64,000 bases of DNA. It comes from Paraspadella gotoi. Lineage: Eukaryota; Animalia; Chaetognatha. The notes beneath the pieces were generated by a model, which searched no databases, was not told where the DNA came from, and saw nothing but the letters and a program-made list of their open reading frames with translations. Positions within the stretch are counted from its first letter, which is position 1; the number at the start of each line of letters is the position of its first letter. The stretch is from positions 1,487,576-1,551,575 of the forward strand of contig JBJCIZ010000028.1 in the NCBI GenBank assembly GCA_051294375.1. Direction: 5' to 3'. Position numbers and translations under genes: made by a program. Below, piece after piece: positions 11,729 through 63,184 of this stretch.

Positions 11729-11759
<31 letters not shown>

Positions 11760-14442
11760 TCCCCGCCCCCATCTCCGGCACCGCCACGGGCCCCTGCATG
11801 GAATACCTCCTCCAACACAACATCCTCGAGACTCTCCGCGCCCTCGGCACGGCCGACTGCCCCACGGGCATGCGGCAGCAGATGCTGGACTTTTTCGCCA
11901 AGCTGCTCGGCCGCGTCCGCCAGCCGATCCTGCCGCACGTGAACGTCCACCGTCCCGTCCGCCTGCTGGTCAAGACTTGCGGGAAATGCCGCGCCGGGCC
12001 GCACGAGACCGAGGAGATCTCTTTTCTGCGGACGATCGCTTCCAAGTTGAAGAGGGATCCTTATCTCGTCGACTTCTTCCTCGAGGATGCGAAGGTGGCG
12101 GCGGAGAAGGCGGTGGAGGAGGAGGAAGGGGAGGGCGGGTCCAAAGAGTACGCCCTCGCCGCTGCCCTCGTCGCGCTGACTGATTCTCCCGACGCCGAGG
12201 TACCGTTAAGATTTCGACGTAAAAATTCAATAAAGATATATCAATATATATATCTTTGACTATATATATATATGTATGCAAAACGAATATTAAATCAAAT
12301 GAAGATAATGAACCCGAAAAGGTTTCAAGTTTCGAGTTGTGTCTTTCCTCTTTCCTCTTCATTGTTCGTCCTTTATATCCGCCTCGTTTGTCGACGTCTC
12401 CTCATTAGTTTTACGGTAGATAAGAGAGAGAGATAAAGAGAGTCAGCCCAACATTCACGGTGGCCCGGAATGACCATAGAATCGTGACCAAAATTCAATC
12501 AATCAATCAATCAATCATCATCCTCCTCCCTCTTAGGTCGCCATCAAAGCCAGCGAAGGCCTCCTCCTAATCTCCAGCCTTCCCGAGCCTCGCGCTTCCT
12601 CCGCTCTCGTCGCCAACACTTCCTTCGCCGCCTCTCTCACCGAACGCCTCGTCCGCTCCTACAGAGCCATTCCCGTCGAACTGGAGCCGGTGTTGGAGCT
12701 CCTCTCTAGCGGCTCCGAGATCCACTGGGGCCTTCGTTGGGAGGCGGAGAATGCCGAGGCGTTTCCTGGGAAAAGAAGACTCGTCTCTTTCCTCAGTTGG
12801 TTCGATTATCTCGATCAACTCGTCAACGACGCGGATTCGGTCGCGGCCGACTCTTTGGCCGACGAAATCAAGTCTCGCTTCTTAGAGGACGTGCTCGAGA
12901 CGGACTTGTTGACGGAAGTGTCTGCTTCTTCCGTCCCTTTCTCTTCCTCTCGCCATCATCTGTCTCTCTTCGCCACCGCGCTGCTCACTCGATGTCTGAC
13001 GATGATTCGGTCGCGTCGCCTTCTCGACGCAGCCGTCGCCTTTCTCCTCGGCGTCAACGCGGAGCCGGAACCGCAGGCCGGCGACGCGGAGCCGCACGTG
13101 CTGCGCAGCCGGCTGTTGGGCCGCTGCGGACGCGACGACGACGCCGCCTTGGCCGCGGCGTCGCTGCGTCTGTTCGAAGTGCTGCTCTCGCGTCCGCATC
13201 CTTTCGTCCATCGGAATTTGCTTCTCCGGAATCTCGAGGGGCGGCGCTATTTGGACGAAGAGCGGCGCCACGACGCCGATGGACGCCGCCGACCGCCGAA
13301 CGGACTCGATAAAGAATTGGCCGAGTTTTTGGAGAGTTTGGATTTGTTGTCCGTCGGAGACGAGGACGCCGCTGCAGCAGCCGCCGCCCCGTCGCACCGC
13401 ACCGTCGCTTGGCTGCTGAACATCGTTCCCGCCAACGCCAAAGGCGGCGAAGGCGGCGACGGCGGCGGATTTGAAGTCTATCTACTCGAAGCCCATCGTC
13501 AACTCAGCGCCTTCGCCGAAGACTTCGCCGTCTGTGATTGGCCCAAGTCTCCCGTCGCCGTGGCAGAGTTTCCTGCGCCGCCGCCGCTGCCAGTTTTCTT
13601 TGAAGGAAGTTTCTTGCGGATGCTGCTGCGGCGGCTGGACCGGCTGCTGTCGGGGAAGCAGAGCTACGAGTTGAATCTGCAGGTTTTTAAAGTTTTGGGT
13701 TTTATGGTTTGGGTCCAAAGAGTCTAAACTCGAGAAACTTCAACAACAGAGAAAAACACAGATAAATCATTACGTAAATATGAAAAATAAAGCCAGTTCG
13801 AACAAAATAATTGAAAGAAGTAATAAAAACAAGATATTATCACTTGAGAATTAATAACAAAAACAAACTATAAAACAACAAAAAACAGCAAACAGCAATA
13901 AACCGCCACAAAAGCAAACTGCAGCAAACTACAACAAAGAACGACAAACAAACAGAAACAACAACAAACCACAACAAACAAAGTACAACAAACAAACAAA
14001 AACCAACCGAAAGAAACAACAACAGACAAAGAAACAACCATAAACTACAAGAATTAATCTCAGTGAATTATCTCCTCTTTCCCAGGTGACGGCTTTGGTC
14101 TCCCTAGTCGCTTCTCTTCCTCATCCAAATCTCAACGAGTTTTGGTTGTCGGCGCCGGACGAGGAGGAGGAAGAAGATCCGGAAGGGGCCCTGACCCTCT
14201 ATCGCGTCCTACGGCGACTCGGCCGGAAATTGGATCGCCTCGCCGACGCGGACGCGTCTTTCGGCGCCGCCGTCGCCGAGAGAAAGCGGCGTCTTCAAGT
14301 CGGCGACGTCGACGACAACGACAACAACGTGGATGAGCGACGAGGGATTCTGGAAGGCGCCGTCTTGTTGGACGAATTGTGCAAAGAATTGGCATCCATC
14401 GTTTTGGTCAAGGATCAACTGGAGGTCGAGAAGACGGACTGA
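10379..14442 (+). CDS. FHIP2: FHF complex subunit FHIP2 (FAM160B); exons 10379-10538, 11671-12199, 12537-13682, 14086-14442 (apparent 1-nt frameshift near 11725-11790)
   Basis: N-terminus [18 protein letters not shown]...[83 protein letters not shown] match FAM160B1/FHIP2A hallmarks. Confidence 0.9.
10863..11644. repeat. Nested inverted repeat (foldback) in FHIP2 intron 1: outer arms 10863-11049 / 11458-11644, inner arms 11058-11130 / 11235-11307
   Basis: Outer arms of about 187 bp are reverse complements with about 9 substitutions. Inner arms of about 73 bp are also reverse complements. Confidence 0.92.
11175..11246 (+). pseudogene. Degenerate tRNA-Gly(GCC)-derived sequence (pseudo-tRNA or SINE head)
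   Basis: GCATCGGTGATTTAGTGGTAGAATACTCTCCTGCTACATGGGTGGCCCGGGTTTGATTC resembles metazoan tRNA-Gly GCATCGGTGGTTCAGTGGTAGAATGCTCGCCTGCCACGCGGGCGGCCCGGGTTCGATTCC. Differences are mostly transitions; the T-loop and acceptor stem are damaged. Confidence 0.75.
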
Positions 14443-15946: not shown

Positions 15947-18900
15947 ATGCCTAATCAGGGGGAGGAGGAGGAGGGGGAGGTGGAGAGAGCTCCCCCGCCG
16001 ACCTCGCTCGCCCGCNNNNNNNNNNGCGGCAGCGGTAGCGGCGAAGAATCGGCGGTGAGCGGCGCCGCCATGCAAATGCCCGTCTATGCGAGGGTGAGAA
16101 GAGTTGTCATTAAATTAATTAAGTGTTAATAATTAATTAATTATAATTATCTCAAGTTTGAAGTTGAAGGAAAGTTCGGGAGGGGGGGGATGAGAAGCCA
16201 AAAAAAGCCCGATCAGAAAATATAAAACGAAAAAAAAAATCAAAGAAAACAAAATACATAGTTGAGTCTTTGATTTTTTTTCCCGTTTTTATATTTTCTG
16301 TCGGGTCTTTTTTGGCTTCTCATTCCCCCCCCCCGAACTTTCCTTCAACTTCAAAACCCACAGCCACCTCTACTTCATCCAGGCCTTCGTCGTCGACCGA
16401 GCGGCGCCGCTCGACGCTTCGCCCGAAGTCTCCTCCCTCAACGCCATTGACGACGAAGACGACGACGACGACTTCTCCATTCCCATCGCGCAGGCGGCCA
16501 CGTCCTCCAAGCACACCCTCAAGTGCCTCGTCTGCGGCGACAAGTCCTCGGGGGTGCACTACGGGGTGTTGGCCTGCGAGGGATGCAAAGGATTTTTCCG
16601 CCGCGCCCTGCAGGACATCGGAGATCCGGGGCGGAAACGGTGAGGGAGGAGTAGTGATAGGGAGAAAGGGATAGGGGAAGACTTTTGGGAAGGGCACACT
16701 AAGAGAAGAGGGAAGGGATAGGGTAGACTTTTGGGAAGGGCAAACTAAGAGAAGAAGGAAGGGATAGGGGAAGACTTTTGGGGAAGGGCAAACTAAGAGA
16801 AGAAGGAAGGATAGGGGAAGACTTTTGGGAAGGGCACACTAAGAGAAGAGGGAAGGGATAGGGAAGACTTTTGGGAAGGGCACACTAAGAGAAGAGGGAA
16901 GGATAGGGAAGACTTTTGGGGAAGGGCAAACTAAGAGAAGAGGGAAGGGATAGGGGAAGACTTTTGGGGAAGGGCACACTAAGAGAAGGAGGAAGGGATA
17001 GGGGAAGACTTTTGGGGAAGGGCACACTAAGAGAAGAAGGAAGGGATAGGGGAAGACTTTTGGGGAAGGCACACTAAAAGAAGAGGAAGGGATAGGGGAA
17101 GACTTTTGGGGAAGGGCACACTAAGAGAAGAGGGAAGGGATAAACTTAAAAACAAAGGAAATTAAGGATGAGGATGAGGAGTTTTGACGAATGATTGAAC
17201 GAATGATTTGGTAGCATCAAGATGAAAAGAAAATGAAATAATTCTGGAGGAAACATGATTTGTTATTAGATTTATCCCTGACTTTAGAGCTTTTGCTGCC
17301 TTTATTAACGAACGTAAAATCGAAAATTATTCCATGTTATACTCTAAACTGCAATATGCAAATGTGATTAAAAAAACTTTATCTTATTTCATATTGAATT
17401 TAATTAAGTTCATCCCTTGTAGAGATGCTCTGATTCCCACGTTGTATTTATTTTCTTCCTTCCTCATCCACAGTTGTTTCTACAACCGGAACTGCGAGAT
17501 CACGATCCTCACCCGCAACCGTTGTCAATACTGTCGCCTGCAGAAATGCCTGGCGATGGGAATGTCCAAGAACGCGGCTCGTCTCGGCCGTCGATCTAAG
17601 AGAGTCAGGGAACTCATCGATCAGGTCTCCAAGTCGACCGAGGACGTGCAGACAACTCAGGCGTTGCATGGACTTTTATCGCTCAATTCACAGGTCGGTC
17701 GGTCGTTGCTTCTTTGTTCTTCATTAACTGTCGGTGCATATTGTTCTTTGTTGTTTTTATTTTTGGTTACCTTTTGTTTGTGGTGGTGTCGTTAGTTTTG
17801 GACCTCCTTGTTAATGTTATCATCGAACACTTTGTTTCGCTCGTTGTCTCTGGTAATCTGTCGGAGACAATATCGTGGACAATCTCAAAGACTCTAAACT
17901 TACCGATGCATATTATTATTAATCAATAATCATTGTCCACTTAATTCGTGTCTATTTATATTATAGTTTCCCTTTCAGCCCTCTGAGCATCGTGTGTTTA
18001 TTATCATAGAAACTAAAAGGTTTTTTTTTAATTCTTGCTATGAAAAGTTGCAAGATTATTTAGTTGATGTTTATTATTTGATGCAGTTTGTTATGGGTTG
18101 TTGTTTTTCATTTGTTTCAAGATTCCATTTGATGTTTGTTTTAAGATTTTGTTCTTTGTTCCTCCTCTTCTCAGAAAAGCCCCGTTGAGAACATTTACAA
18201 CTCCAGCCAATGCATCCAACGCGTCGCCAAGGAGATGGCGGGCATCGACGAGGAGGAGCCGCACGCCCTCGATTCGGTCGTCGACTCCATCGTCGCCGCC
18301 GACGACGACACGGAGGACGACTTCAACGCCGAGTCGTCATCATCCCCGGCCGACAGACTCAAGACCGACAGACCGACATCTTCCTCCTCCGTCGGTCTGG
18401 GTTCGCCGCCCGGCAAATTGGTGGCGAACATGTTGAGTCAACCCGCGATGATTCATCCCAACGACGCCTTCCTTCAATTCCTCGCCCTTCAGCAGGGAAA
18501 GAGCGAGACCGACGCCAAGCCGACAATTGTTGTCGGTGGAGAAAATCCGGAGACGAAGCCGACAACGATTAAGGACGACGTCTTCGATTCCTTACTGCCT
18601 CCTCCGCCGCCAGACGCCGCAGCGACGTCCGTTCTCGTCGAAAAGGACGCCTCCTCGTCGCTCGATTTCCCGGCGTCTCACGCCGCCGCCGCCACCGCCG
18701 CGACGAAGCGATCGTGGGAAGCGGCGATCGGCGACGCCGCCGCAACTCGCGCCGTCGTCGCCGCCAAGTCCATTCGCGCCGCGGATCCGGCGCCGCTCGA
18801 TCAGATTCACTTATTCATCCCCAACACCGCCGACGGAGAAGAGCGCCTTGCCTACGTAGTGGCGCCGCCGCCGCCTCAGACGCAGCCCCGTCCGTCGTCG

Positions 18901-21900
18901 CAACTTTTTCTTCAGGAGCAACAACAACAACAACAACAAGCGAACCTTTTGCATCAAGTCAACCGAAGCCACAACGACACACAACAACAACAACAACAAC
19001 ATAGCATACTGATCGTTTCCTCGGGTCCTCCTCCTCTTCCTCCTCCTCCTCCTCAAACCTCCTCCTCCTCGTCGTCGTCTTTACTCGGCGTCGCCAACAA
19101 TCCCAGTTCTCTCTTCGATTCCTTCCCTTCTACCTCAACAGCCACGCCCACTCCGAGCGCCACCTCCGTCGTCTTGCCCGGGCACGCCCACCAAATCTCT
19201 TCGGCGCCCAAGACCCAGGGTCTCTTGACGTCTGCGTCGACGACTCAGCCGAGGCGTTGCGAAGCCGAAGACGCCGCCTCCGCCGCCGGCGCCGCAGGGA
19301 TTCAGCTCCTGCTGCTGCCGACGGTGACGTTCGTCTCGGCGCCGGACGGAAAGTTGATGCCCGCCGTCGGACAGGAGATGGGATCCTTGCCCGCGCTGCC
19401 CGATCCTCAAAGTCGACGGGAAAACCTCGAAAGCCTCGAAACGAAACCCATCCTCGTCGCCGCTGCTCCTCCTCCTCCTCAGCAGCCGCTTCAGTCGCCG
19501 CCGAAAGTCGCCTTTTCCGCCTCAGAGACTCGAACCCGGCCCTTGGCGCCGGCGCCGTCGGCGGGACCCGCGCAATCAACGCTCGTGTCATCCTCGGCGC
19601 CGCATCGGCCGCTGCTGGTGGCGCCGCCGCCGATCTCGGGGAATTCGTCTTCCGTCGGCGGCGGCGATTCGCCGCCGTCGCAACAGCAGCGCCTTCCGGC
19701 CTCCGACGCCGGATCCGTGTCTCGTCCGGTGCTGGACGCTGCCGCCCTCGTCCTCAACGTGGATCATCTCTTCTCGATGCTCTGCCGATTTCCGGCGGAG
19801 CGCGTGGCAGAGATACGGACGGGTTTGGTGAAGAGCGGACGGACGCCAGACCGGACGATCCTCTCCGCGGATCCCGTCACCGTCATCCTTAAGCATCAAC
19901 GCTTCATGGAGGACGTCCTGCATTCCGTCGTCCAGTTTGCAAAGGGAATTCCCGGTGGGTATTTTCCTTGTTGGTCCCGACAATCTCTCCTTTTGATAGT
20001 AATGCAATTACAATGCTTAATGCTTATCGCATAATGCATTCGTCAGTTACATCGTTGTTAATTCTCGGGTTTGAGCTCTTTAATTTTGCCGTCAATCCTC
20101 AAAGTGTGTGCAACATATTTTACAATATTTTTTATGGCGTTTTCTAATCTTATTTGCATTTTGCAGTCATTTCGTTTTCTTTCCTTTTTTAGTACTCGCG
20201 GAGCAACTCTATAAGTCACTTTCGGCGGGTCTGCTCGGATTCGGTTGGTATGTCTTCGTCCGTCGCCGTCTGTCCCACTTATTGTTAAAAAATGCTTATA
20301 ATTTGCCTATGGTTGGTTCTTCATTTGTTATGATAGAAAAAAACCTCAACTCTAAGGGACTGCAAGCGCCACCTTCAGGAAATCCTAAAACTAAATGGAA
20401 TAAATGACGGAATTTTGATGCATTACATTTCATAAATACACGGGCTAAGAAAATTATTGTAGTCATGTTATTGTCATGTCACGTCAGTCATGTCACAAAA
20501 ATACACGTGATAAGGCAGTCACTGCGAATTACATTTTTGTTTTCATAATTCTTTCGTTTTTTGAATTGTTTTTTATCGTCGAAATCGCTATGCGTTTGCA
20601 ACATATTGTAACGCTTTTGCGCATAAGTGGCGTGTCTCGTCGTCGTTGTTGTCGGCGTTCAAATTATAGATCGCCTTTTAGGTGTATGAAGCTGAAAATT
20701 ATATATACAGCTTCTCATCATCGATGTGCTTAAAATTGAGTCTGGACTGTTATTAAATATGTTTTGTTTACGTTTTATCAAAATAAAACAAATTTTCTCT
20801 CTTTTATTTATATTTTCTTTCTCTCTCTTTTCTCTTTTAATTACATGTCTCTCTCCCTCTCTCTTTTCCCTAGTCACTGATTCATAATCATAGGGAAAAA
20901 AAAAAGCAGCTGGCTCTGCAGGGGTTTATTCTTTTTCTCTCTTTTCTCCTGCTGCTTCTGCAGTTCCCTTTTGATTCTGCAGCTGGCTCTGCAGGGGCTC
21001 TTTCTTTTTCTCTCTTTTCTCCTGCTGCTTCTGCTGCTGCCTTTTGATTTCTTTCTTTTCTCTCTCTCTTTCTCTCTCTCTCTTCTCTCTTCCTGCGTTT
21101 TTTTAAAAAAAAATTGAATTAGGATTGAACTCGTAAAATTAGGCATCGCATTCGTGCATGTTATCATTTTGCTATCGCAACATCTGGTTTTTATTTTGTT
21201 TTTTTTTCTTAGGTACTGCGTCTGCTGATCAGTTTATTTTTTTTTAACAATGAATTTTTTTTTTTTTTTTCAGAAACTGTAACTTAATTTTCCTCGGTAC
21301 TTTATTATTTTTTTTAATTGACAATCGCAAAATATAATTTTTCTTCTGTTTATAATTTAATTTTCTTTCTTAAATTTTATTTTTTTTTAGTATCAAAATT
21401 TGTCGTCAATCCAGATTTTTCTTATGCGATTGCGACGATCCTTATGCTATTAAGATTTTTTAACAAAAATGTTTAAATTGCTTTTTATCACTTTATGAAA
21501 AGTAAATTGGAAAAAAAACTAACTATTTTACAATTGTAAAGTGCCGTATAACATTTTAAAGCGAAGAAGCCGATAACCAATTGAAAAGAGTCGTGCGTTA
21601 GCACCAACTGCCCTTCTCGTCTCGTGTGATCCTCAACCTCTTCCCCCCCCCCATCTTTCCCAGGCTTCACCGGTTTCCACCCAGACGATCAACTGACCCT
21701 GGTCAAGCAGGGCGCCTTGGAAGCCACCCTCGTCTCCTACCACCCCCTGGTCGACCTGGAATCCAATAGCATATACTCTCCCTCTCTGGAGGAAGTCGTC
21801 ACCCGGGAGGGACTCGTCTCCTTCGCCGGCGACGACAAATTCGTCGAACTCTTGTTCAGCCTCGCCTCCCGGTTTCGCTCCTTCGCTCTGCGCCGAGTCG

Positions 21901-36509: not shown

Positions 36510-39109
36510 ATGGCGACGCACGTGAACGGCGGCGGAAGTGGCGGCGGCGGCGGCGACGACCTCGCCTCTTCCGACGAAATCAAAGTCTTCAACACAGAAG
36601 GCGAAGAATCAGACGAAAAACTTTCATCTGAAAAAACTTTGAGCGAAGATAAATTCGGCCTCATTTCCGAAAGCGAACTCGGCGGGAAAGGATCCGCCGC
36701 CAACCCAGCTGGCTCGGGGGCGAGTGCTGCAGCGGCGGCCTTGGGCGGACTACATCCTCCGCCGCCACCTCACCTCTTCAAACACTCGATCGACAATCTG
36801 GCGCGAAGCAGCGCCGCTTATCATTATGGCTACTTTTATCCTTACCATCCCTACGCCCATCCCGGGCTTGGTAAGGTTTCGCCCCATCACCCGTCCTACC
36901 CGCTCAGCGCCTCGCCTCACCACGCTGCCGCCCTTCAGGCTCTTTACAGCCCTTTCGGACAACCCCCTCCGGCCCACATGGGAATCCCGCCGATGGCTAT
37001 CGACCCTAAGACGGGGATGCCCCGTTCCGTCTACGCCCCTTTCCCTCATGGCCCGGGATCGCCCGGGTTTCCTCATCCGGCTTACAGCCCCGACGGCTTG
37101 GCGCAAGTGTCGTGGTCGCCGCCTCCCATGTACCCAATGGCCTCCAGCCCTTATCGGTCGCCGTATCCGCCTGGGCTGTCGCCCCTGGGGCGGTTCACTC
37201 ATTCGCCCGTCGCGCAAAGTCTCTTGTCCTCTACGCCGTCGCACCCGGGACTCATGGGTCATCCCGCAGCGGCGGCTGCGGCTGCGGCGGCGGCGGCAGC
37301 CGCGGGAATGATCACGCCTCCTCCAGGTGAGATATATTTATATATATTTCTCCATTTAAACCTTAATCCTTACAAATTTCTAGCATTAACTCATTTTGCA
37401 TTTTGATATGCTAATGAGATTGTAGAGAGTAATTATCTTCCTCAATTCGCGCCAGGGTCTTCGGCATTCGGCCACGGATCCCTCACCTCGCCCAAGTCGT
37501 CGGTGACGGCGGCGGCCAACGCGGCGGCGGCTGCGGCCGCGCTGCTCGCGCCTCACTCGCCCCACCTCCACCCGAGTCTTCCTCACCCACCACCTCACCT
37601 ATCGGGTCCGCCCACTTCCGGTTCCGCTTCGTCGCTCGACAGCGTCGCTCATCGTTTCGTCTCCAATCATCCGCTCGTCCACGACAAACCGAGCGGCCAT
37701 CTCGATCCGCATCATCATCATCATTACGCCTCCTTGTTGCCAGGTGATTGGTTTTCATTGCTTGTCTCCCTTGCCGGGCATTGTTAAAAGTTCAACCCGC
37801 CTATAAGCTATAAATGATGGTATCAGAAAAATATTTGGATTCAACCGATGGGAAAGTATTAGAGAGCTGCGGAGTTTATTTGCTTACTGTGACATTATTA
37901 CTATGTTTAACCAACGTAGAAAGAATTTTATTTCAAAGATCTATTGTTCGAAAAATTTATTTCTCAAAAAATAGTTGTATTCTTTACTGATTGAAATATT
38001 TTTATCAATAACTTTAACCTTTAGTGGTAGTTTACATGTTTTGTCTTCAGTCTTAGCTTTTTTGATGCTCATGTATGTACTGAATCAACCTTGTTGAATT
38101 CGAAATTAAACGCATATAAGCATGACACCTTCAGTTGTCACCCGGTGGCTCATTGAGTAATTCCATCAGCTAATGACCGCGATCAATCCCCAATGGTACC
38201 TACCATCGGATAAGCGTGAGGACGGCCGTAACTGTTATGGGGATCTGGTAAACCCTCAAGCTTAGTTCCATGCGCACTGCCCAGGTCCCTTTTCATGGGT
38301 TTAAGAAGTTGCGGATAGCACTCTTCAGCCCACTTAGGGCCTTATCCACGTTCTTATTGCTTTAGTTGATCTGTCATCAAAACTTTATGGTTATGAGCTT
38401 GTGAAGGCCTGGTTCTGGTATTCATTTTTGCTTACGAGCCCCACTCTTATAATTATTATTATTATTATTATCGTCGGCTTTTTCATGTATTATTTTTTCC
38501 TTTGTCATCATAACTTTTTTGTTGAGTTATTTATTCTGATTTCTTTTTATTGCTTCCCATCGCTTATGGTTAAATTATCCGTCACTCAGATCCGATTGCC
38601 TTTTGTTAAAAATCCTTAACTGGCTTTTAGCTCATATCCCTCGCCGAAAGGCTTTATGCTCCAGCTTTTCTACCTGGGCGATTTAGTCCCATAATCCTCT
38701 TGACTTAAGCCTTAAGGAGGCCTCTGGCTAATAACCTTTTGAATCGGTATGAATTGGCCGGGAGTTAGTAGCTTATTGGGTTTAGCTGTGTTCAGAGTTA
38801 ATGAGCCCTTACGTTTTAAGACGTTTTAGTAGCACTGAATCTTAACTATAATCAGGTTGTCTGTGTTTAAGTAGGTTAAGTTCAAGCGAGATTTCGCCGA
38901 ATATCTTGGGTCACTTATCAAGTGCAGACGCCGTGTTATCTTTGAACTCAACTTATCAGTTCGCCTGTTTTTTTTCAGTTCAACCCGGTGAAAGCCTCAT
39001 TTTCCGAGTTGCTCATTCAGATAAACTCTATCCGTTCTAAATCTTATACTAACTGATTTTCATCTCTCTCTCTCACTCATTCCCTCTCTCTCTCCTCTCT
39101 CTCTCCTCC

Positions 39110-48787: not shown

Positions 48788-49499
48788 ATGGGTTTCACCG
48801 GGACCAGAGTCTTCATCGGAGGAATCTACGACACGGATTTGCGAGATCGGGATTTGGAGAAAATATTTCAGAGTGGGTCCAAGTCCTTAGTGTGTTTGGT
48901 TTATTCATTATGTAATGTATAGTTTGGTCATTGGGCGGAGTTTAATTTTTTGGGATTATCGTTGTTTCGGCTTCTTGTAAGTTAATCCTCTTCTTGGTTC
49001 ATATTAAAAGGTTTGTCATTTTTACATTTTGAAGTTTTGAATCCTGTTAATGTCGCTAATGTCCTGTCAATCACGATGTTGATGTAATAATAATTCATTC
49101 ATTCAGTTGTCCTTCCGCTTAACAGGACATGTTAATGTTTGGTAAGTCTATTGCCTCCTCTCTTACCGCATAATGACATGCAGACTTTAAATATATATTC
49201 TCCCATTCTCTCATGTCTACAACTCCTAATAACAACTTTAGTTTATCACAACTTTTATCACAACTCTCAGAGTACGGGGAGATCGAAGAGGTGGTGATAA
49301 AAAAAGGTTTCGGCTTCGTCGTCTTCGCCAGGGAAGATGATGCATGGAATGCCATCCAGGATTGTCACGGGATGTACATCGCCGAAAAACGCGTGGTGGT
49401 CAGGATGGCGCACAGACCTGGACAAAAGAATAATGAAGGGCCCAAGGATGGCGGGGGAAGCAAGAAGGATGCGGCTGGAGGAAAGGACAGGCGAGTCTT

Positions 49500-49543
<44 letters not shown>

Positions 49544-51385
49544 ATGAGAGAGACACAGAAAAATATTAGAGATAGTTATGGAATAAAAAGGAAGAAATGT
49601 TTGGAAGGAATCAGCGGAGGCAATAAAATATTTGAAACTTTCGATTAAAATAAATACGAAGAAATATATTTAGAAAATTAATAAAAAAATAAAGTTACAT
49701 TATGAATAATTTTTATATTGGTTGTACATACAAATTTCATTATCAAAATCATTAAAAACGCATAATGACTGGAGGACCCGGGTTCGCGCCCTGCTGATTC
49801 ACACTATCTTGTATGGAAGCGACATCGTATCGTCAATATTAATTAAAGAACAACAACAACAACAATCTTCTTTTTCGTTTTCTAAGAAATTGGGAGATTC
49901 GATCAGAATACAGACTCATCGTGAAGAACCTTTCGTCGACTCTCGCCTGGCAAGATCTCAAGGACTTCATGAGACAGACTGGAGACGTTCATTTCGCCGA
50001 CGTCGGCTGCGGAGAGAAACACACCGGTGAGGAGACCGCTATTCGATATTACTAATTAACCATTATCTAAAAATAATGTTATAGTGGTTTTTTGATCATA
50101 AAAATTAAAAGACCGTTGAAAATATTCACTCGGTTGAGTCTTCTTGTCGATTCTCCATTTTTAATGGCTAGAAAAACGTAACTGTAGAGTGTAGTTATTG
50201 TAATGCAATGCCATTACAAAATAGTTGAAATATTTTCTATTTAGTATAAGTACTGTAATAATAGATGTAATGTTTAATTGGCACTCAAGGAAAAAAAAAA
50301 CCAGAAATCATCATTCATCACAATAAAATAAATAAATAAATTGTCACGATTGATTGATTCTAGGAGCCACAGATAGTTATCAAGATAATTATCACTATCG
50401 CCTCCTCCATAGGCGTGGTCGACTTCGTGACTCGACGCGGGATGGAAGAGGCGCTGAGGAAGTTGGACGGATCCGTCCTCAACGGACGAAGCATTCGACT
50501 CTACATGGACAGCACCTCCAGGTTCGCCGTCGTTGTCAGTTTTTAAGGACTTCGTCTTTTGGATCATTCTTTCCTATTTCTTTTCGGCATCGCGGGATTC
50601 GGCATCCGAGAAGTATTGTAATTGTTAAAATCACTCTTAATAAATCTTGTAATACTGCAATAATTATAAAATGTCTAACTATAATTTAGAAAAATGAATC
50701 ATTGTTAAACACGTTTAATATAAACCGTATCCTGGAAATAGTAAAACGAAATTTACGAGTAAACCAAATCGTTAGGATATGTTTATTACTTATTTTGATA
50801 TATTAATAACATATTATCTTGTAAGAGTGACGGAGGCATTAAACCAGCAATGCCTGTTCAAAGTCAGGGGCAAGATAGCTTATTTATTAAATTAATGGAT
50901 AATTTTTATATTGGTTGTACCAATTTCATAATGTATTCTTGAAATCTTCATCATTTTTCTCTCTTCCTTCCTAAGATCTTGTGTGACGAATCGCGAGTCT
51001 CGATCTCGAAGCCGAAGTGGATCGTCGAGAGGCGCCGGGCGAAGTCGGAGCCCGTCGTCGGAGTCTAAGAGCAGGACGTCGTCGAGGTTTAATCGGGGGG
51101 GAGGAAGTAAAAGAGAAAATAAAAGAGAGAAAAAGAAGGGAAATGTGAAAGAAAAATGGAAAGAAAAGAAAGGGAAGGAAAAGAAATTTAGAAAAGATTT
51201 AAAAATTAAAGTATGAAGCAGCATCAACACGCGACTAATCTCTTCCTCTAAGATGGAGTTAAATGAACAACTTAAAAAAAGGAAAAGGAAAGGAAAAGAA
51301 AATAATTTAAAAGAAAGAAAAATCCTTTTTATCTTTAAGGTCGAAAAATCGAGGAAAAGATTTTGCCAAAAAAATGATTGATTAA
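48788..51385 (+). CDS. SR splicing factor, SRSF4/5/6 (B52)-like, two RRMs plus a short RS domain; exons 48788-48872, 49271-49490, 49887-50026, 50413-50521, 50976-51086, 51340-51385
   Basis: RRM1 [39 protein letters not shown]; RRM2 [58 protein letters not shown]; SRSRSRS tail. The last exon is uncertain. Confidence 0.85.
50812..50930. repeat. Dispersed repeat, copy C (inverted relative to A and B)
   Basis: ttatcttgtaagagtgacggaggc...aaagtcaggggcaagatagcttatttatt..atggataatttttatattggttgtaccaatttc is the reverse complement of copy A. Confidence 0.8.
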
Positions 51386-52728: not shown

Positions 52729-54967
52729 TTTCATTATTATTATTAAACACACATATCCCCCTCTTCCCTATTCCCCCTCTTCCCTCTCTTCCATATCCCC
52801 TATTCCCCACTAACCCTCTCACCCTTCCACCCCCCCCGTTTCCACTCACAGCAACGTCTCCGTGATCGAAGACGATCCTCACAACCCGATTCCCGACTCG
52901 ATCTTCCACGGCGGCGCAAACGTCACCTGGACTCTCTTCCGATGCCGACGTCTCGTCCTTCGCCCTTTCGTTTTCCTCCTAGAATTTATCTCCTGGTATC
53001 CATTTCCCTATCGCTATCAAAGCGCCGGCGTCGTCGGCGCCGGGGACGAGTCTTCGCCGCGCCGGGTCTGCAACGGCGTCGTCGGATTCCTCAACGCCGG
53101 TTATCCCATTTTCGTCCTCCTCTTCCTCATTTATTCTTACGTCTACGAGGCGTTGGCCTGTCACGGGAGGATCTCCGTCAAGCCGTCGAACGAGTCGAGG
53201 GGACAGGAGCTGGAATTAGCGGCGCTGCTGGCCGGCGGAGGGGTGAGGCGGAGTCCTGCCGCTGCTGAAGCGATGCTGCTTTTTTTGGCTTCACAGTTTT
53301 TATGTTTACGAAAGAGATTTGATATCGACAGTTTAATGATATGAGTTTGAGCTCCAATTACTTTTAAATTGTTTAAAATAAAAGGCTGCGATTTAAATTT
53401 TGATCTAGAAATATGACAAGACTCGATGCGTGAACACTGAACAGTTGTTAATCCAAAGGTCTTAGTCAAGCCATACTACTACAGTATCTAAATTATTTAA
53501 ATGTCTTATAATAAAAGATAGTCGACTTAATCCTGACCAGGGCTCATTTCCCGCCAAATGTCCTCACCTCGTCACGACTTCCGTCCTTCCGAGTCTTCTT
53601 CATCTCATCGTCTTCGTCATCGGATTTTATTCTTTTCGAATCCAACAATACGAATCCTTTTTCTCTCTCCTCGAAAAGGTCTTCATTGAGACCGGTGAGT
53701 CAGTCAGTCTCTCTCTTCATTGAGACCGGTGAGTCAGTCAGTCTCTCTCTTCATTGAGACCGGTGAGTCAGTCAGTCTCTCTCTTCATTGAGACCGGTGA
53801 GTCAGTCAGTCTCTCTCTTCATTGAGACCGGTGAGTCAGTCAGTCTCTCTCTTCATTGAGACCGGTGAGTCTCGCTCTCGCTCTCTTTCTCTCTCTCTTT
53901 TAATTCTTTCCTCCTTCCCCCCCCGCCCCCTTCCTCCTCCCCCCGCCCCCTTCCTCCTCTTCTCCCTCCCCCTTCCTCCCCTTCTCCCTCCCCCCTTCCT
54001 CCCCTTCTCCCTCCCCCTTTCCTTCCTCCCCCCGCCCCTTCCTCCTCTTCTCCCTCCCCCACTTCCTCCCCTCCAGCCCCCTACTTCTCCGCCTCCTTCT
54101 CCCAGAAACGCATCGTCCGTCGTCTCCGCCTCTTCCTCCTCCTCTCCCTCTTCTGGGTCATCGCCTCCGTCGGTCAAGACATCCTCTACGTCGTCGCCTT
54201 CGGCCTCGACTCGCCCGCCGACGGACTCGTCCGAACCGTCCTCTTGCCCGCCCCTTCCTCGCCCGCCTGGCTCGCCCGCTGGCTGCCGTGGATCCTCGAT
54301 CTCCTCGGCTCGCTGCTCCGCCGCGCCGTCTACGCCGCCGTGCTGCTGGACTACGCCACCGAATGCGAGATCATCCGCTTTTCCGTGCTGGGGCTGGAGA
54401 TGCGGCTGCAGGAGCGGACGGCGCCGCTGGAACGCGCCTTCAAGGACGTGCTGCATCTTCGCGCCAAAGTGGCGGCGCTCAACGGCGTCGTTGGTCGAAT
54501 GGCGTCGGTGGTGACGGCGTCGTCCGGGATCGGCGTCGTCGTCGGCGTCAGATTCTTCGTGTTAGACGGAAGCGACGCCGGCGTCGCCGCCTCAATCTAC
54601 CACGCCCTCTTTCTTATCGTCTGGACGGCGGCGTTCTTGACGTCGCTGGTCCAGGCGGCGCGCGTCAACGTGGCGCTGGACAATATTCAATCGTTAGCGT
54701 TGGACGGGAGGGGATTCGGGTATCCAGGTGAGAGAGAGAGAGAGGGAGAGAGAGAGAGCGCGCTAAATCCTCTTTCCCATCTCAGGCGCTTCCTCCCACG
54801 AGCTGGACTCGTTCCTCTCATTCTCCGCCCACGCCCCCATCCGCGCCAAGATCTGCCACGTGCCCGTCGCCTCCACCGCTCTCGTCGTCGTCGTCGTCAT
54901 CGTCGTCGCCAGTTTGCTCGTCCTCGTTCAGTTGAACGTCATCCTTCCAGTCGCGACGGCATTTTGA
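52166..54967 (+). CDS. Multi-pass membrane protein of the 7TM ion-channel / gustatory-receptor-like superfamily, most like GrlHz; exons 52166-52428, 52852-53242, 53541-53694, 54077-54727, 54786-54967
   Basis: Phase-consistent spliced ORF with about 7 hydrophobic segments. Motifs LPSLLHL..F..FRIQQYE..SLLEKVFI, SLVQAARVN, FGY..ASSHELDSFL.F..IRAKI.HVPV and C-terminal ASLLVLVQL, which resembles the GR TM7b TYhhhhhQF motif. Family call is from memory. Confidence 0.6.
53680..53870 (+). repeat. 34-bp tandem repeat x about 6, each unit containing the exon end and 5' splice site
   Basis: Unit tcttcattgagaccggtgagtcagtcagtctctc with period 34 (accggt at 53691, 53725, 53759, 53793, 53827, 53861). Confidence 0.92.
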
Positions 54968-56704
54968 GACGACTTTCGCTCCTTTAGTCATTTAATCATT
55001 TATAGTCACTCATTCATTTTTAGTATTATATTATTTTAGTCGTAGTGTGTTTATTCATTCATTCTTAAATTTACCCTTTATCCCTTATTTCAGTTCGAAC
55101 GTTCTTTAATTTAGTGCTAAGTAATTTAGTATATTATATTATTTTAGTCATTACCTAGACTGTTAAATTTTGTAGTTTGTTTTTTTCGTTCATTCATTAA
55201 CTAACCTTTATTACTTAATCGTTAGTTCAATTGTTTAAACGTATATTCATTTATTGGTTTTCGTGTCAATTCATTCATTTTAGTTCTGCTTTATTTTAGT
55301 CTTTCCACCGTTTCAAATTCTGTAGAAATTTAATTCATAATTTATATTCAATCTGAAGCGACATTTTTTGTCTTTTATGTACAATTTATAAATTAACCTT
55401 ATCACTTATTCGTTAATTCAATTGTTCAAACGTTTATTCATTCAGTCTTTTAATCACACAATTTTGAATTGATACCTAGTGTTTCTCGATATTATTTATT
55501 CACTCGAACCTCATTTGGTCACAGTAAATATTAGATGACTCAATCACACAATTTTCCCATTTCCAAATGGAAACTCGCGAATTAAATTTGTGCCATCGTC
55601 TTCTTTCGCGTGTAGCGTTTTTGACTTTTATACTTAATTTAATAAATGATATGAAATAAAATGTCGGCATCCTAAGATTTATGCATTTATGCATCAAGAC
55701 GAGTCAGTTTTGAATCAGCGGAAAGAAAAAGAAGAGGAGCTAAAAGAAAAATTCGGAATGTTTTAAAATTTTACGTGTATTTAAAGATTAGTTATATTCA
55801 ATTATTATCGCTGAACCGATGCGGGCATCCGTGCAAACTGGAGAAACTCTGATTAAAGTCGTAGCACGTTGAGTTTAAAGACTTTTTTGATCACTCCTTA
55901 TTTTGCCTATTAAAAATTAGAGGAAAAAACTTGCTAATTAAATTGCAGAGGCAAATAATATTATTTATTAGCGAATATCAATTGAGCAACGAATTGTTAA
56001 CAAGAATGATGATAGAGCCAGGAGAGGACAGAAGAAGCTGGGGCAGTGAAAGAGTAAGAGCGGAGAGTAAGTCAACTTCTCTCGTGATCACTGAACTCGT
56101 CAATGTCCTATTTTAACCCCGTGGCTCCGAAACCTTAGTAGCCATACTGTCTTTTTATTATAACGACTTGCTTAGTGGTAGTATTCCGCTATGACTTTGA
56201 ATTCTTTTCTAAAAAGCATACGACTGGCTCGGATACAACGTCAACGAGTTGAGGCGCGTCACGGATTTTCGCCCACAGTTGCGCCCGCGGGGGCGAGCCC
56301 ATTTTTCCGCCCATTTAAGAATGTATTTTTATTCGCCCTTTAAAAAGGAAATAAGAATACTGAAAAAAAGGGACACAAGCTCCTGACAGTTTTAGTAGAG
56401 AGACTTTACTAAGTTATCTTAAGCAATTACTGACTGCACCCACTCGATAATAATTTCGTTTGGTGAAGATATAAAGTTTGCAATACAATAATGTAGTATT
56501 GTTATCGCCTTTCACTTTTTGGGGCAATGCATAATTCTCTGATTGTTGTGAACATCAGTCACACAACTTCAGGACTGAATGTTTGTTATAAATATTTGAA
56601 ACTTTTCTGTTCATGGTCTATTTAGTCTTGCTGAGGAGAAAAGGGGCTTCGAAAAGTTATGTAGAATGTACTTAAAGCCGTCGTTTGAAAATGTTATAAA
56701 ATAT

Positions 56705-56776
56705 TTCCCATGCGGGGAATCGAACCCCGGCCGCGGCGGTGAGAGCGCCGAATCCTAACCACTAGACCACATGGGA
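56705..56776 (-). tRNA. tRNA-Glu (anticodon CTC)
   Basis: Reverse complement TCCCATGTGGTCTAGTGGTTAGGATTCGGCGCTCTCACCGCCGCGGCCGGGGTTCGATTCCCCGCATGGGAA: 72 nt, intact cloverleaf, A and B boxes. Confidence 0.95.
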
Positions 56777-57145
56777 AGCTATGTATAGACGGAGCAAAAG
56801 AAAAGTCTTTTTCGTTCTTTCAGAACAAAACGACAAATCGGAGAGGAAATTTAGATTTTAATTTAAAATTCAACTCAATTTTTTTTTATTAAACTTTAAA
56901 GATTTGAAGCAATAAATGATTAGCAACGAATATGAGCAAGATAATCCTAGGAAGATACAGTAAACAAGAACCAATAAAGCTTAATCATAACTTTTCTTTA
57001 AAATGATACCAATGATACCGTTTATTTTACTGGAATATAATCAAACCAATTGTAAGTAAAATTTAGATATTGCAGCAATAATTGCTAAAATCAAAGCCCG
57101 ACAAAAATTGTGTACATGACATACATCTTACAACATTAATCCAAA

Positions 57146-60100
57146 TTACGCCTTTCTAGTTTTTATCGTCACAGAAACCGAATTCCCAGAACTAATATCT
57201 TTGATCAAAGTTTTTCTCCCAACTCCTTTTTTTCCGATTGATAATGTGAAACCATCATCGTTAATGACAGTCAATCGTGAATCAGTCTTAGATTTTTCAT
57301 TCGAAATTTGTTTAGCTAAATCAAAAATTTTTGCACCTTTTTGCGCAGAACTGACAAACACGGTTCCAATAACCTCTGACCCGGTGGCCTCGTGAAGAAG
57401 GTCTACTTGCAAGTCCCGGCTTAAATCAAACACATTGACAATTTGCTCTTTTTCTTTGTCTAATTTTAGATCTGAAAGTTTTATTTTTTGATCCTTCAAG
57501 TTGACCACAACATCCTGAAATTCAACCCGACTTTGTCCCTGATCAAACAGTTCGTGATTGACTCGGGAATTAATTTCATAAATGACATCCTTGACTAGAG
57601 TTTCGGCCGGAAAAGGTATCATTCCCTCCAACACTGGATCTTTGCTTTTGTCTTCTCCTTTGAAGAGTTTAATTCTAATACGGTAAGACTCTAATTTTAT
57701 TTTTCCTAAACTCATGGCCGAGGAAAACGCTGCCCTTTCATTTTTGACATATTCTTGAGCACAGTCTAAGAGTGTGTCATCCTGTTCGTCTTTAACATAC
57801 AGCTGTACAAACGCAAAACAATGCATGACCATTCTATCGAACCACTTATCAAGTTTTTTCATCAATACTTTTTTATCTTTATCATAGTGGATAATGCCAT
57901 TTCTGAGGTTTCTACACAAGCTCATAAGACTGGAAAAGTTTCCCTTTACGGTATTAAATTTATTTTGCACCAGGTCCGTAAGTTCTTGGTCCATAACGTC
58001 TTTCCAATTACCGTCAGGATACATAACCGGACCATTTTCTTCAAATAGTTCAGAATACTTGTTGAATCTGACTTTACTTTCCAGCGCTGTACCATCCAAT
58101 CTTTCCAGAAATGTGTGAACACTTTCTAGCACTTCTTTCCTTTCCAAGAGTTCAAGAAGAGAGGGGTGTTCGGTCAGGCTGTCTGGGTTTTTGCCCTTGA
58201 AGAAAACCAAAAGCAAATTTTGAAATTCAAATTCCGTCTCCCAACGGAAAATCAAGCACCAACTCCTGTTAAAAGCGACATTCAACACAATTTGTTTTGG
58301 AAACAAGTACTCCAAAGAAGGAGCCAAGTTACAGGCGCAATTTATCTTCTTTTTGTACACGTCAATCAGAGGTGATTCTAAAGTTCTCATGTGATCAAAT
58401 TCAGTTCTTCCATGATTTATTTTGGGATTTGAAAGAGAGTCATTACATAGCAAAAAACTATCCATTTCATTTTGCACTAGGACTTCAAGTAATAAAAATC
58501 CTAGTTTTGAAAGAATTAGCCATGATGCGTGCAATTTGATTGATTCATTCCCCTTAATTATCAAAATCAAAGAAGATTCATTTTCTGTTATCATTTCTGC
58601 AGAATACGGCCATGAAATGATATTTTTGTCCTCACAGTTTAGCAGTTGCATTAAAATCTCGTGACCTTCAAAATATATAATTAAGCCGCCCTTCCAGATC
58701 TCAAAAGTCCAACCTTTATTTAAGAGAAGAGCGAGACCGCGAATAAAGTTTATCACTTTGCTGCAGCAAATAGCAAATGTCGCAAGGGACAGACAATGAT
58801 CAATCTCGAAGGTACTACCCAAGTTCCCCGTATTTTTCATTAGAATAGGATCCCATAAAATTCGTTTCTTTGGAGGTTCGGCTGTTACTAAAAATGGAAC
58901 CAGACTCATGTTTGATTGAGAATCTTTAAATAAACATAATAATCCTATGTCTTCCAAAGTTTTCAAAAAAACATCAAATGCTTTTTCATTATTTTTGTCG
59001 GTCCCAAGTTTATAAAGCTCTAAATTATCATAGTTCCTCGTGATATCAATATTTATTCCCCCAGAGTAATCAATGTTATGCATAAACAACGACTCAATCA
59101 GAGATAATGGTAGTTTTCCTCTGGAAAACGAATCATGTAATGTTTCTAAAGGAGTGTCACTAATTTGAGAAAACTTCTGTAAAATTCCATCCATGCCATG
59201 ATGAAATAAGCTCTTCATCATTGCCGCGAGTTTTTCAACTCGATGGAAAATGATCTCTTTCTTCATTGGACTGGGGGACCAAACAATCAGCCCCATGGAT
59301 GCCATGCATTCAAGTAACATCATCACATCCCATTCATCCAACTTTGGTTCAGCCGAAAGAAAATCCGAGAAACGTACGAAAAATTTGTCAGCAAAGTTTG
59401 ACATCAACGATTTCATCTTCTTTTCCCACTCGGAAGGCACAGAAATCGTTGGAATTCTTTTTAGAGCTAAATCCATGTTTTTTTTCAAGTTCTCCATTCC
59501 TTCGCCGGTCTTTGTACTGAAACTACATATCAAATCGGTATAAAATTCGGGAGGATGAGTTTTCGTAAACTCAGCTTCCTTCAGCCTGTAATTAAGAACG
59601 TGTATTTCTGTTTCTGCTGATTTTATTTTGGTTTCGTCATCGGTCTCCTCCAAATATTTCTTCCAAATTTCTAACTCTTCCTTAAATTCCCGGATTTTAG
59701 CGTCGACTCGATTGTCAAAACGGCCAATTTTTTTGGCCACGAATTGGGTCAGCAGGTCTTGGCATTCCTTGGCTTTCCTCGCGGTCAAAACGTCCAGCTT
59801 GGAAAAACAAAAAAAGAAATGAGGCCGTTTGATGGCCTCCAAAACTTTTTGTATCCACGACCAACAAGAGTTCTCGAAAAATTTTTCAATGTCCCCGGGT
59901 TCTTTGTCTAGAATTTGTAATTGCTGTTCCCCGTCAATAAGCAAAGCGTAAAGAGATGTTTCCCGACTTACGACCGGTAACACAGCGTGATAATCAGTCT
60001 GACCCCCGATATCTATCACGTTGATGAAAGAATCGGCGATGTTGATCGGGTAAGTATCGAAAGCTTCGGTTCTATTCGAAATCTCGATCGAATCCGCGAC

Positions 60101-62655
60101 GGGAGCTTCCGCCAATTTCATTCCCAACGACGTCTTCCCGGCCAAAGCGTTTCCGATCAAAGTTAAAGCCAAATTTTTTTGTTCCCTCATGTCTGTTTTT
60201 TCGTAGCGATTGAGAAATTTCAGTACGTCGTCTTTTCCTTTGCTGTATACGAACAGAGGAACGTACGCCAAGGGGTTTCCTCTATAATCTATGGTCACGT
60301 CGGCGGGTGTTTCAATTTTCAATACGGTTCCGGGGCTTATTTTAAATCCGCCCGTCAGAATTTCACCCGTTTTCAAATATTTAATCATTGATTCTTTTGG
60401 CATTTCTCGAATATTGTTTTTGGATAAGACAATTTTCATTCCTTCCTTAATGAGGGAAGGAGGAACTGCTCTTATCGAACATAAATCAGCAGAAAGTAAT
60501 TCCAAAGGAGATTCATCCGGGGAGGGAGGAAGTGTCACAAGATCTGAAATACAAAATTACTTAAAACTTAAACCGTTTATAAGTTGCATACTAGGGTGAT
60601 GTGAAAGTTTGGAATCCAAATTTAGCAGTTATATCTTGAAAACTATCATATTAGTAAATACTAATCTGAAGTTATTTTTCTTTTTTTATAAATATAGTAG
60701 CCCAGTCAGCTTATTTTGTATATAGTACTACCCTTATATAATGTCAAAATTTATAAATTATTTTTCTTTAAATTCTGAAAACTGATTCGGATTCCTCCTT
60801 AAAAGTTGATAAAAATAATATAAATCTTTTTCAAAAATTATATCATTAAGTAGGTTAAAATTACAAAAAAACTATATTTTTAAGCTGGAAATTAAAAATT
60901 GGTGTCTTAAAAATATTTTTTATATTTTTGACTAACTTAATAAAATAATTTTTAAAAAAGAATTATACTTTCTTATATCAACTTTTTGCAAGGAATCCAA
61001 ATCCGATCTTAAAATTATAACATTTACATTTTGAAATTTTAGTTATTATATACTGATTACTATATAGAAATATAGCTCACTTTTGCCCACTATTGAATAA
61101 AATTAAAAAATAATTTTATTAAAGTATGTTTATTGGTTTTTGTTTTTATTTTTTATTTGCTAAATTTTAATTTTCTAAAATTTTATCATTTTCACATCAC
61201 TCTATTGCATAACCACAATACCTTTAAAGGCAATGCCTGACAAAGCAATGCCTGCTACAGAGAATGCCAACTCTTAAACCTGATAATAATTTAATGCCTC
61301 CATCTTAAGGCATAACTAGCGATGAATATTTAATATTATTCAAAAGTAATATAACGAGTTTTATATAAAATTGATATTTTTTGTACATTTTGTTAATTGG
61401 CAAAATAAAATCTTACAAAGAAAATTTTGCATTATCTTCGTTAATTGGCAAAAAAAATCTTCATGTTCGAATAATTTTGTCTTATCTTAATTGCTATTTT
61501 TATTATTTTTTAACTGTTTAAGGGTGGTTAGGGGTGGTTACTGGTTAGGGTTAGGGGTGGTTAAGGTGGCAGGTGGTTGGGGTTTAGGGTGGTTAAGATT
61601 AGGGATTTGGGATAGTTATAATTTCAATACAGCGTTCATAATAAGAAGCGAAAAACAAATAACCGACCGGAAAATCCCGGTCGGCGAATGTACAATTTAG
61701 CCCATATTTATTTCGTCGGACAATTGTTGTATCGATTGAAAGCTAACATAAACATAAAATATTTTTTTAAAAGTTTAACCGTTTTCAGATAGTTATGCCC
61801 TAAGGTTTTTTTAGAAAGGATCTGGACCTCCCTTTATTTAAAAATTAAATGTTATTTTTAAAAAAATGTAAGCAAAAACAAGTTTTATCGACAACCACCG
61901 AACCAAATGGTCGACTACAGCATGATCCGAAGTCCGTAGTAAATGACATGCGGTACTTTATCCTGTCTGTGCGGTATTATATTTAAACATTTGCCTCCCA
62001 ACTTGTAATTACTTTTATTGCCGTCCAAAACGAGGGACCGTAGTTGATGATGAAATAGTTCGTCCGGGAGCTCATAAATGTCACACATTTTAACGTTGAG
62101 TTCCAACAACACGTCATTGATTCTCGGGATAGTTCTCAATTTCCCGTTGACGGAAACGTCGCATTTTGTTAGACGACGTTGAAAAAGTTCATTGGGTAGG
62201 CTCAACAAGTTGCAGTGGCTCAAAGTCAGTTCGCTCAGTCGGTCAGCGAACCCATCCGGAATGAGCATCAGCGGTCTATTTGACACAACCTCAACTTTCT
62301 CCAGCGCGGGTAAGTTTCCTAACCAAGGAGGAAACAAGTAAAATTCGTCTTCTTTTTTTCGAAACGAAGTCACTTTGGAGAATTTTTTCATTTCCTCATC
62401 CGAGTCGACGATTTCCATGGGACCGATAAAGTCGAAAGCTGTGATTTTGCTCGCCGTATCTTCGTCCACCTGCATCTTTAAAAACTTCAAATCTCTGACT
62501 CCCAAGGATCGCAAGTCGAGCTGGAGTTTCGTGCCCATTTTGGGATTTTTAAGAATGACCCGTTCGATAAAGTCAGAGGTCAGACGGAAAACTCGGCAGT
62601 TTCCGTCCGTAACAATAGAATCGCGGTGGAAATAGAGATATTCTTCGGGATCCAT
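57146..62655 (-). CDS. Kinase-less Roco protein (MFHAS1-like LRR-ROC-COR) with C-terminal KEN-like RNase and two ubiquitin-like domains; exons 62655-62013 and 60543-57146 (about 1346 aa)
   Basis: LRRs (LSELTLSHCNLLSLPNEL, LRSLVLDGNKNLVTLP, GNPLAYVP); ROC G1 GNALAGKTS, G3 DIGGQ, G4 SKLD, G5 STKTGEGM; COR-like LLECMASMGLIVW and SLVPFLV. Phase-1 intron joins GNK|NLV. Confidence 0.85.
60592..61204. mobile_element. Non-autonomous hAT-like MITE in Roco intron
   Basis: 15-bp TIRs tagggtgatgtgaaa / tttcacatcactcta (1 mismatch), 8-bp TSD ttgcatac / ttgcataa, and internal imperfect palindromy. Confidence 0.75.
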
Positions 62656-63184
62656 GATTGTAATGGGAAAGAAAAGTTCTGCGCTCTAATGACCTTTTGG
62701 TGGATTCAAATTTTTCATTAGTTTAACTGAAAAATTTATTTCTGTAAATGNNNNNNNNNNCATCGCGTCATATTTACGAACGGTGAGTCTAAAAGAATTT
62801 GATCCAACTGTCTTTTTTTTTTCACAAGTCACGTTTTTCTCGATTTCATCGGTAAATATATATATATATATATCTAATCTAAAAAAAAAGAATGGAATTG
62901 GAAACGAACTTTGTGCCTTTGATTCTGCATGTAGGGACTTACCTGAACCAGGGTAATGAGTTATTTTTTTTAAAAGAAGTCGATCTGTATATATATGTAG
63001 CTTCCAAATCCCTGGCACCAAAATTATTTTGACATCTCGCCGTCTTTTGTTCCCGATATATCAGATAGATTAATATGGCTCCCTCCTGTGATTAATCCTT
63101 TATTATTTACCTTTCATCTGGCTCTATATTCCGATGTTCTCTCAGTTTGATTTTATCTCGGTGCCAGGGTGTTCCTCTAATATC

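Follow-up and report, generated by a model that had tools for sequence, protein, structure and literature searches.

A kinase-less LRR-Roc-COR protein with a KEN-type RNase domain in the chaetognath Paraspadella gotoi: a candidate sensor-switch-effector in a single chain

Described KEN and Roc-COR proteins

In IRE1 and RNase L, it is a kinase or a pseudokinase that brings two KEN domains together, and RNase L is defined by ankyrin repeats together with the pseudokinase. The cleft of the RNase dimer houses the catalytic centres of IRE1, which involve R905, N906, H910 and Y892; in the yeast enzyme, activity falls more than 300,000-fold in the His mutant and about 10-fold in the Tyr mutant (PMC9472280). 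For HEPN RNases in general, the motif is defined as Rx4-6H with a polar residue after the R, located at the end of a helix (PMC3710099). The same survey (Anantharaman et al. 2013) describes kinase, ankyrin, CCCH, UBI or BRCT partners for KEN, as well as expansions of kinase-free KEN proteins in Oikopleura dioica and in monocots, which are predicted to be defensive RNases. In the sections of the survey covered here, Roc, COR or LRR are not listed among the partners.

Proteins that place an effector behind Roc-COR have been described in bacteria. The bacterial LRR-AP-GTPase(Roc)-COR proteins of Kaur et al. 2021 carry at least 24 swappable C-terminal effectors, and two proteins of Thioflexothrix psekupsii (WP_086489369.1 and WP_086489735.1) have the order LRR-AP-GTPase-COR-HEPN (PMC8195603). 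The protein reported here has the sensor-switch-effector order in common with them, and a HEPN-superfamily RNase can occupy the effector slot. No KEN fusion was found in 13 source-data files of the study, one of them covered in part.

Among the animal Rocos, a kinase and WD40 repeats after COR make up the LRRK1/2 layout (PMC6337361). About forty animal Roco architectures are figured in PMC11378527 and may bear on the novelty of a Roco-KEN protein. The covered portions of PMC11378527, PMC6337361, PMC9334734 and the bioRxiv preprints 2025.07.21.665930 and 2026.10.19.760177 do not mention a Roco-RNase in animals. Likewise, no Roco-KEN fusion was found in the literature searched, which included few subscription papers. 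In some molluscs, COR is combined with DZIP3-type HEPN domains in automatic annotations; if true, this lowers the novelty of an animal Roco-plus-HEPN protein, and not that of the KEN version. The first-pass annotation of the locus had known of no description of the architecture. This stands for the fusion itself within the literature searched, but bacterial COR-plus-HEPN and kinase-free KEN proteins were already known, and given these precedents the sensor-effector idea is less unprecedented than the annotation held.

The gene and the domain order of its product

The window is a stretch of 64,000 nucleotides of the Paraspadella gotoi assembly. Its minus strand holds a stop-to-stop frame of 3.4 kb (60556..57146, 1136 aa; residue numbering starts at 60556). 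The features of this frame and of the region upstream of it are as follows:

62013..62655, minus strand: predicted exon 1, N-terminal region and about four leucine-rich repeats (ORF 61915-62685)
60544..62012, minus strand: predicted GT-AG intron of 1469 nt (phase-matched donor and acceptor)
60592..61204, no strand assigned: MITE-like high-copy element, polymorphic, inside the predicted intron (15-bp terminal inverted repeats)
57146..60543, minus strand: exon 2, one open frame with LRR cap, Roc, COR, KEN and ubiquitin-like tail (ORF and contig of run X4)
60197..60543, minus strand: last LRRs and LRR-to-Roc linker, residues 5-120 (model and profile match)
59447..60190, minus strand: Roc GTPase, residues about 123-370 (Pfam, family profile, model)
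60154-60128, minus strand: Roc G1 motif
60013-59999, minus strand: Roc G3 motif
59803-59792, minus strand: Roc G4 motif
59782-59558, minus strand: helical-hairpin insert in Roc, residues 259-333 (model)
58292..59446, minus strand: COR-A and COR-B, residues about 371-755 (model)
57710..58231, minus strand: all-helical KEN-type (HEPN) domain, residues 776-949, with a core at 795-921 (58174-57794) (Pfam PF06479, family invariants, model)
57887..57904, minus strand: RNGIIH, an Rx4H catalytic motif, R885-H890 (R885, N886, H890) (sequence)
57149..57694, minus strand: ubiquitin-like region, probably two units, residues about 955-1136 (family profiles)

The join between the exons is a prediction from sequence, and other GT and AG sites are also present. 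The donor (AAA/GTAATT at 62012, phase 1) and the acceptor at 60544 give a joined frame of 1347 aa and rebuild a canonical LxxLxLxxNxxLxxLP repeat over the junction. Among the family N-termini caught by the search pattern, 13 of 14 open with S, L or P, followed by the same G/D-L-x-x-LP; this is what read-through of a pyrimidine-rich acceptor would give, and thus supports the acceptor at 60544. The full protein probably has 1347 aa, with most of its LRRs on the upstream exon (62655-62013), so that the length of about 1130 aa first given for it applies to the frame and not to the whole chain. The LRRs of exon 1 are weak Pfam matches (E 0.002-0.005, below the cut-off), while the exon 2 cap aligns with Roco LRRs.

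The junction of Roc and KEN does not come from faulty assembly. A single contig of the public run X4 spans 57637-60582, from Roc to KEN, with one difference and no gap, and a single contig of run X6 spans 57000-58972; the best-matching runs may be the source sample itself. Nine coding variants are listed, of which four are silent and five missense, and none makes a stop or falls in a catalytic motif. A chimeric assembly or a dead gene is thereby largely refuted, and the six other full chains of the family that share the layout leave this explanation with a very small chance. What speaks for it is that exon 2 is one long, GC-poor frame and that no spliced RNA was seen. None of the 15 joints listed is a spliced joint, and run X6, which is guessed to be RNA, covers intron sequence too, so this result weighs neither way on expression.

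The MITE-like element within the predicted intron has a summed depth far above that of the exons in all four runs, and it is missing from a contig in runs X1 and X4, being present in some alleles and absent from others. The same intron contains degenerate TTAGGG-like repeats at 61518-61619. In run X1, a contig over the KEN core (57764-58113) has a depth of 42.8, compared to 26-29 in the flanking contigs, which could be due to merged alleles or a second copy. No second copy of the Roco-KEN gene was seen within the 64-kb window.

Fold and motifs make the window protein a Roco. Its structure model aligns with LRRK2 and the C. tepidum Roco from residue 1, and a profile search matches the LRR-cap region to an LRR-Roc-COR protein at probability 98.3. 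The Roc domain is below the Pfam cut-off in the window protein (E 4e-4) and above it in the relatives P0002, P0003, P0006 and P0007; the family profile matches 4wnr at E 6e-13, and the G1, G3 and G4 motifs are all present in the window protein and conserved in the family. COR follows Roc directly and is supported by the structure model, there being no Pfam COR match. No Pfam kinase family and no kinase motifs were found in the window protein. A scan of exon 2 gave no clear transmembrane helix, the top hydropathy window (1.79) lying inside COR-B.

In the place where LRRK proteins have their kinase, the first-pass annotation had seen a KEN domain, in one frame with LRR, Roc and COR, and this reading is borne out. 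Ribonuc_2-5A (KEN) is the best Pfam family for the C-terminal part: in the whole frame it matches residues 831-924 at E 1.1e-4 and 22.8 bits, just under the cut-off of 23.3, and when 57731-58240 is excised the match (PF06479, E 3.4e-6, 27.6 bits) passes. A leave-one-out profile, built from six relatives with the window protein excluded, scores 68.6 bits on the KEN region, while the best of 200 shuffles scores 0.6. The core opens with a TEHP block at 58174-58163. The RNxxxH motif proposed as the catalytic site is RNGIIH, exactly at the position claimed for it, and in the model H890 closes helix 877-890 (pLDDT 73 for the block), as expected for a catalytic helix of this type. The proposed block-by-block likeness to IRE1 is found in the HMMER alignment to human IRE1 (4yz9), where E839, W851, G872, S876, R882, R885, N886 and H890 are identical, although the family KEN profile retrieves IRE1 from the PDB at E 1.6 only, behind three unrelated chains. 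The column of the IRE1 general-acid Tyr (human Y892) has V870 in the window protein, as had been noted, and Tyr in none of the 10 family rows shown. With the KEN stretch as query, phmmer retrieved chance matches only from the PDB. When the full model was used for fold searches, its GTPase part took up the matches and KEN was not listed, which is evidence in neither direction.

The domain order LRR-Roc-COR-KEN without a kinase is, in our judgement, almost certainly real. With IRE1 and RNase L the window protein has in common the KEN profile, the R-N-x3-H site and the order of the conserved blocks. Unlike IRE1, it lacks a kinase before KEN, a lumenal sensor, the general-acid Tyr and, in exon 2, a clear transmembrane helix; unlike RNase L, it has no ankyrin repeats or pseudokinase by Pfam in either exon. 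Instead, Roc-COR occupies the position of the dimerising kinase, with COR ending about 40 residues ahead of the KEN core. An IRE1 or RNase L orthologue was considered and dropped, since kinase or pseudokinase, ankyrin repeats and lumenal sensor are all missing, and an LRRK orthologue was dropped in the absence of a kinase and WD40 repeats after COR. In comparison to LRRK1, LRRK2, MFHAS1-type Rocos and LRR-Roc-COR-CARD proteins, KEN and ubiquitin-like units replace the kinase-WD40 part, the CARD or the empty C-terminus.

The domain inventory of the first-pass annotation (LRR, Roc, COR, KEN) was correct as far as it went, but it missed the C-terminal ubiquitin-like region. Family profiles of the tail match polyubiquitin (5vix) at E 9e-4 and 0.0075, and the model has the order beta-beta-alpha-beta-beta at residues 957-1042 (pLDDT 45-64), the second unit being below pLDDT 50. 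The kinase-free KEN proteins of Oikopleura and monocots resemble the window protein in the lack of a kinase, and the described KEN-UBI fusion is a precedent for its tail. As a guess, the tail sets turnover of the protein or serves as a decoy.

A divergent family

Word-based searches with the single protein retrieved no homologs. Of 599 candidate stretches from a scan of metagenome contigs, one proved to be a locus, and by eye it encodes an LRR-Roc-COR protein of ordinary bacterial type without KEN; in viral contigs, 0 of 340 pattern matches held. A full HMMER scan with the window protein yielded 96 proteins at E<=0.001, the best of them 25-32% identical over most of the chain; 7 further proteins came from a cluster look-up and a KEN-profile search, and the total stored set is 104. 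Those close relatives for which records were consulted lie on contigs of 1.3-4.8 kb in ENA or JGI assemblies and are unnamed or "hypothetical".

The family KEN profile matches 13 of the 104 proteins, and RNxxxH is kept in all 13, of which 7 were used to build the profile and several are near copies. Roc and KEN occur in a single chain in seven of the 13 (the window protein and six others), the remaining six being C-terminal fragments. Across these seven chains, the distance from G1 to the catalytic R is 744-771 residues and the tail has 250-284 residues, and the kinase motifs HRD, DFG and VAIK are absent from every one. In nine non-redundant members, 32 of 36 pairs are 18-37% identical in the KEN core, and P798, E839, N841, G849, W851, G872, S876, R882, R885, N886, H890, F914 and A933 are invariant. 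Given that R, N and H are all kept, the KEN domain is probably an active RNase. PF06479 was found at E<=1 in three of the seven excised family KEN domains, which explains the family's lack of annotation. No NCBIfam family matches the window protein.

A tree of the Roc domain was built from the 65 of 104 proteins with a long enough region. The seven KEN chains fall within one long-branch clade of 20 rows with support of 100/100; the root is at the midpoint, and the sister group is without resolution. The other 13 rows of this clade are fragments of up to 606 aa that end before KEN, so the four label changes on the tree do not show losses. Other Roco matches end in CARD, GT4, CHAT, Mrr or Death-FIIND.

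These data also bear on whether the RNase domain belongs to another HEPN lineage and merely resembles KEN, having come, for example, from a bacterial LRR-Roc-COR-HEPN gene with no piece of IRE1 or RNase L captured. This is quite improbable. The bacterial COR-plus-HEPN proteins would provide a source, there are weak second matches to Apea-like HEPN (Pfam, E 0.024) and to Cas13 models (E 0.001-0.004), and the look-alikes in the ESM Atlas, which gave matches below 0.9 only or none, are bacterial HEPN clusters. However, PF06479 matches four orders of magnitude better and over positions 20-120 of its 127, and IRE1 has the E..G...W and G..S..R..RN..H blocks in matching order and at matching distances. 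In addition, KEN is described as having no specific prokaryotic relatives (PMC3710099), and the Roc domains of the family form a clade of their own.

Several relatives differ in detail. One of 468 aa (P0063) has the same exon-2 LRR cap, but where the window protein has Roc-COR-KEN it continues with low-complexity sequence and a RING finger, which suggests module shuffling behind a shared LRR exon. A Cys/His-rich insert inside KEN, possibly zinc-binding, is present in P0002, P0003, P0005, P0012, P0026 and P0102-P0104, and absent from the window protein and P0016. In P0025 the family Roc has an eroded G1 motif.

A possible switch and its setting

In its mode of action the protein most likely resembles the bacterial Roc-COR-effector proteins, its effector being a eukaryotic RNase; the sensor-switch-effector logic proposed in the first-pass annotation fits those proteins (PMC8195603). 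The reading that is favoured on balance is a cytosolic immune sensor, switch and RNase in one chain. In such a protein, recognition of an invader molecule or a disturbed host target by the LRRs would shift Roc-COR into a dimer state. COR has been described as a dimerisation domain (PMC11378527), and since it sits at the position of the kinase, the simplest model leads from LRR sensing through a Roc-COR dimer to paired KEN domains and RNA cleavage. The COR dimer would take the part that the kinase or pseudokinase dimer plays in IRE1 and RNase L, and the paired KEN domains would cut RNA without metal via H890, R885 and N886, with an antiviral or cell-death output. Against this stand the short LRR array, whose first exon is joined by prediction, the weak KEN similarity in relatives, the lack of the Tyr, the single copy seen in the window and the eroded G1 of P0025.

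By analogy with these systems, gating of KEN by Roc-COR dimerisation is proposed tentatively. The Roco of C. tepidum forms mainly dimers in its GDP-bound and empty states, and monomers once GTP is bound (PMC5714945). If the same applies here, a GDP-bound or empty dimer is more likely to be the RNase-on state and GTP may hold the RNase off; the sense of "GTP-gated", as the protein had been termed, may thus have to be reversed.

Alternatively, the RNase may be active or latent and not gated by Roc-COR dimerisation, the GTPase being a localisation, filament or scaffold module and KEN responding to a partner, to a ligand or to the removal of its ubiquitin-like tail. Other control points of this kind are offered by the tail and by the long helical insert of Roc; the working mode of Rocos is still debated, and the Roc of DAPK1 acts within the chain on its own kinase (PMC6337361). 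Such a protein is nevertheless unlikely, given that KEN follows COR-B at constant spacing in all seven full chains, in the position of the dimerising kinase of IRE1, and that the G motifs are conserved.

An immune role is fairly likely, because of the rapid divergence of the family, the effector-slot pattern and the defensive prediction for other kinase-free KEN domains. The RNase might instead serve stress or housekeeping functions, as IRE1 does, by regulated mRNA decay or non-spliceosomal splicing of a host transcript. The ancestral role of KEN is in the ER stress response (PMC3710099), and by Pfam the neighbours on the plus strand within positions 1-50000 of the window are ordinary animal genes:

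1-348, plus strand: alpha/beta hydrolase
7179-7646, plus strand: Bcl-2 family protein exon
11700-13727, plus strand: RAI16/FHIP-like
16266-20034, plus strand: nuclear receptor, C4 zinc finger
36510-37406, plus strand: TCF-like exon, TCF-type beta-catenin-binding domain
49177-49566, plus strand: RRM protein

A stress RNase is rather improbable all the same. Identity among family members is just 22-30% along the chain, a level more in keeping with conflict genes than with housekeeping genes, exon 2 has no clear membrane anchor, and related Rocos carry immune effectors. The surroundings also set the gene apart from the bacterial proteins of Kaur et al.: it is an animal gene with a predicted spliceosomal intron among animal neighbours, and its product has a eukaryote-specific KEN effector, ubiquitin-like units and a helical insert in Roc.

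A more far-reaching version of the immune reading would make the protein an invertebrate counterpart of RNase L that is independent of a kinase and of a second messenger. The LRRs and a GTP/GDP monomer-dimer cycle of the Roco would directly switch a KEN RNase captured from an IRE1/RNase L-like gene, and the tandem ubiquitin-like tail would be a degron or a decoy for viral enzymes. This is doubtful as a whole. If it were true, the conformational cycle of a Roco would be read out directly as RNA cleavage. The OAS-RNase L axis is absent in Aplysia (PMC9334734), and many invertebrates seem to be without it; the Roco-KEN family would couple sensing to RNA destruction in animals by another route, and would parallel in animals the bacterial Roc-COR-effector defence proteins. 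It would also directly test a question from the LRRK2 field, namely which nucleotide or oligomer state of Roc-COR is active, as a KEN RNase needs two protomers and is therefore a simple read-out of that state.

Two further observations concern the region between the RRM gene and the Roco-KEN gene. Hydrophobic reading frames at 52800-54990, without a Pfam family, may be exons of a multi-pass membrane protein. A single tRNA-Glu(CTC) gene lies at about 56700-56780, on the same strand as the Roco-KEN gene and about 370 nt downstream of its stop codon.
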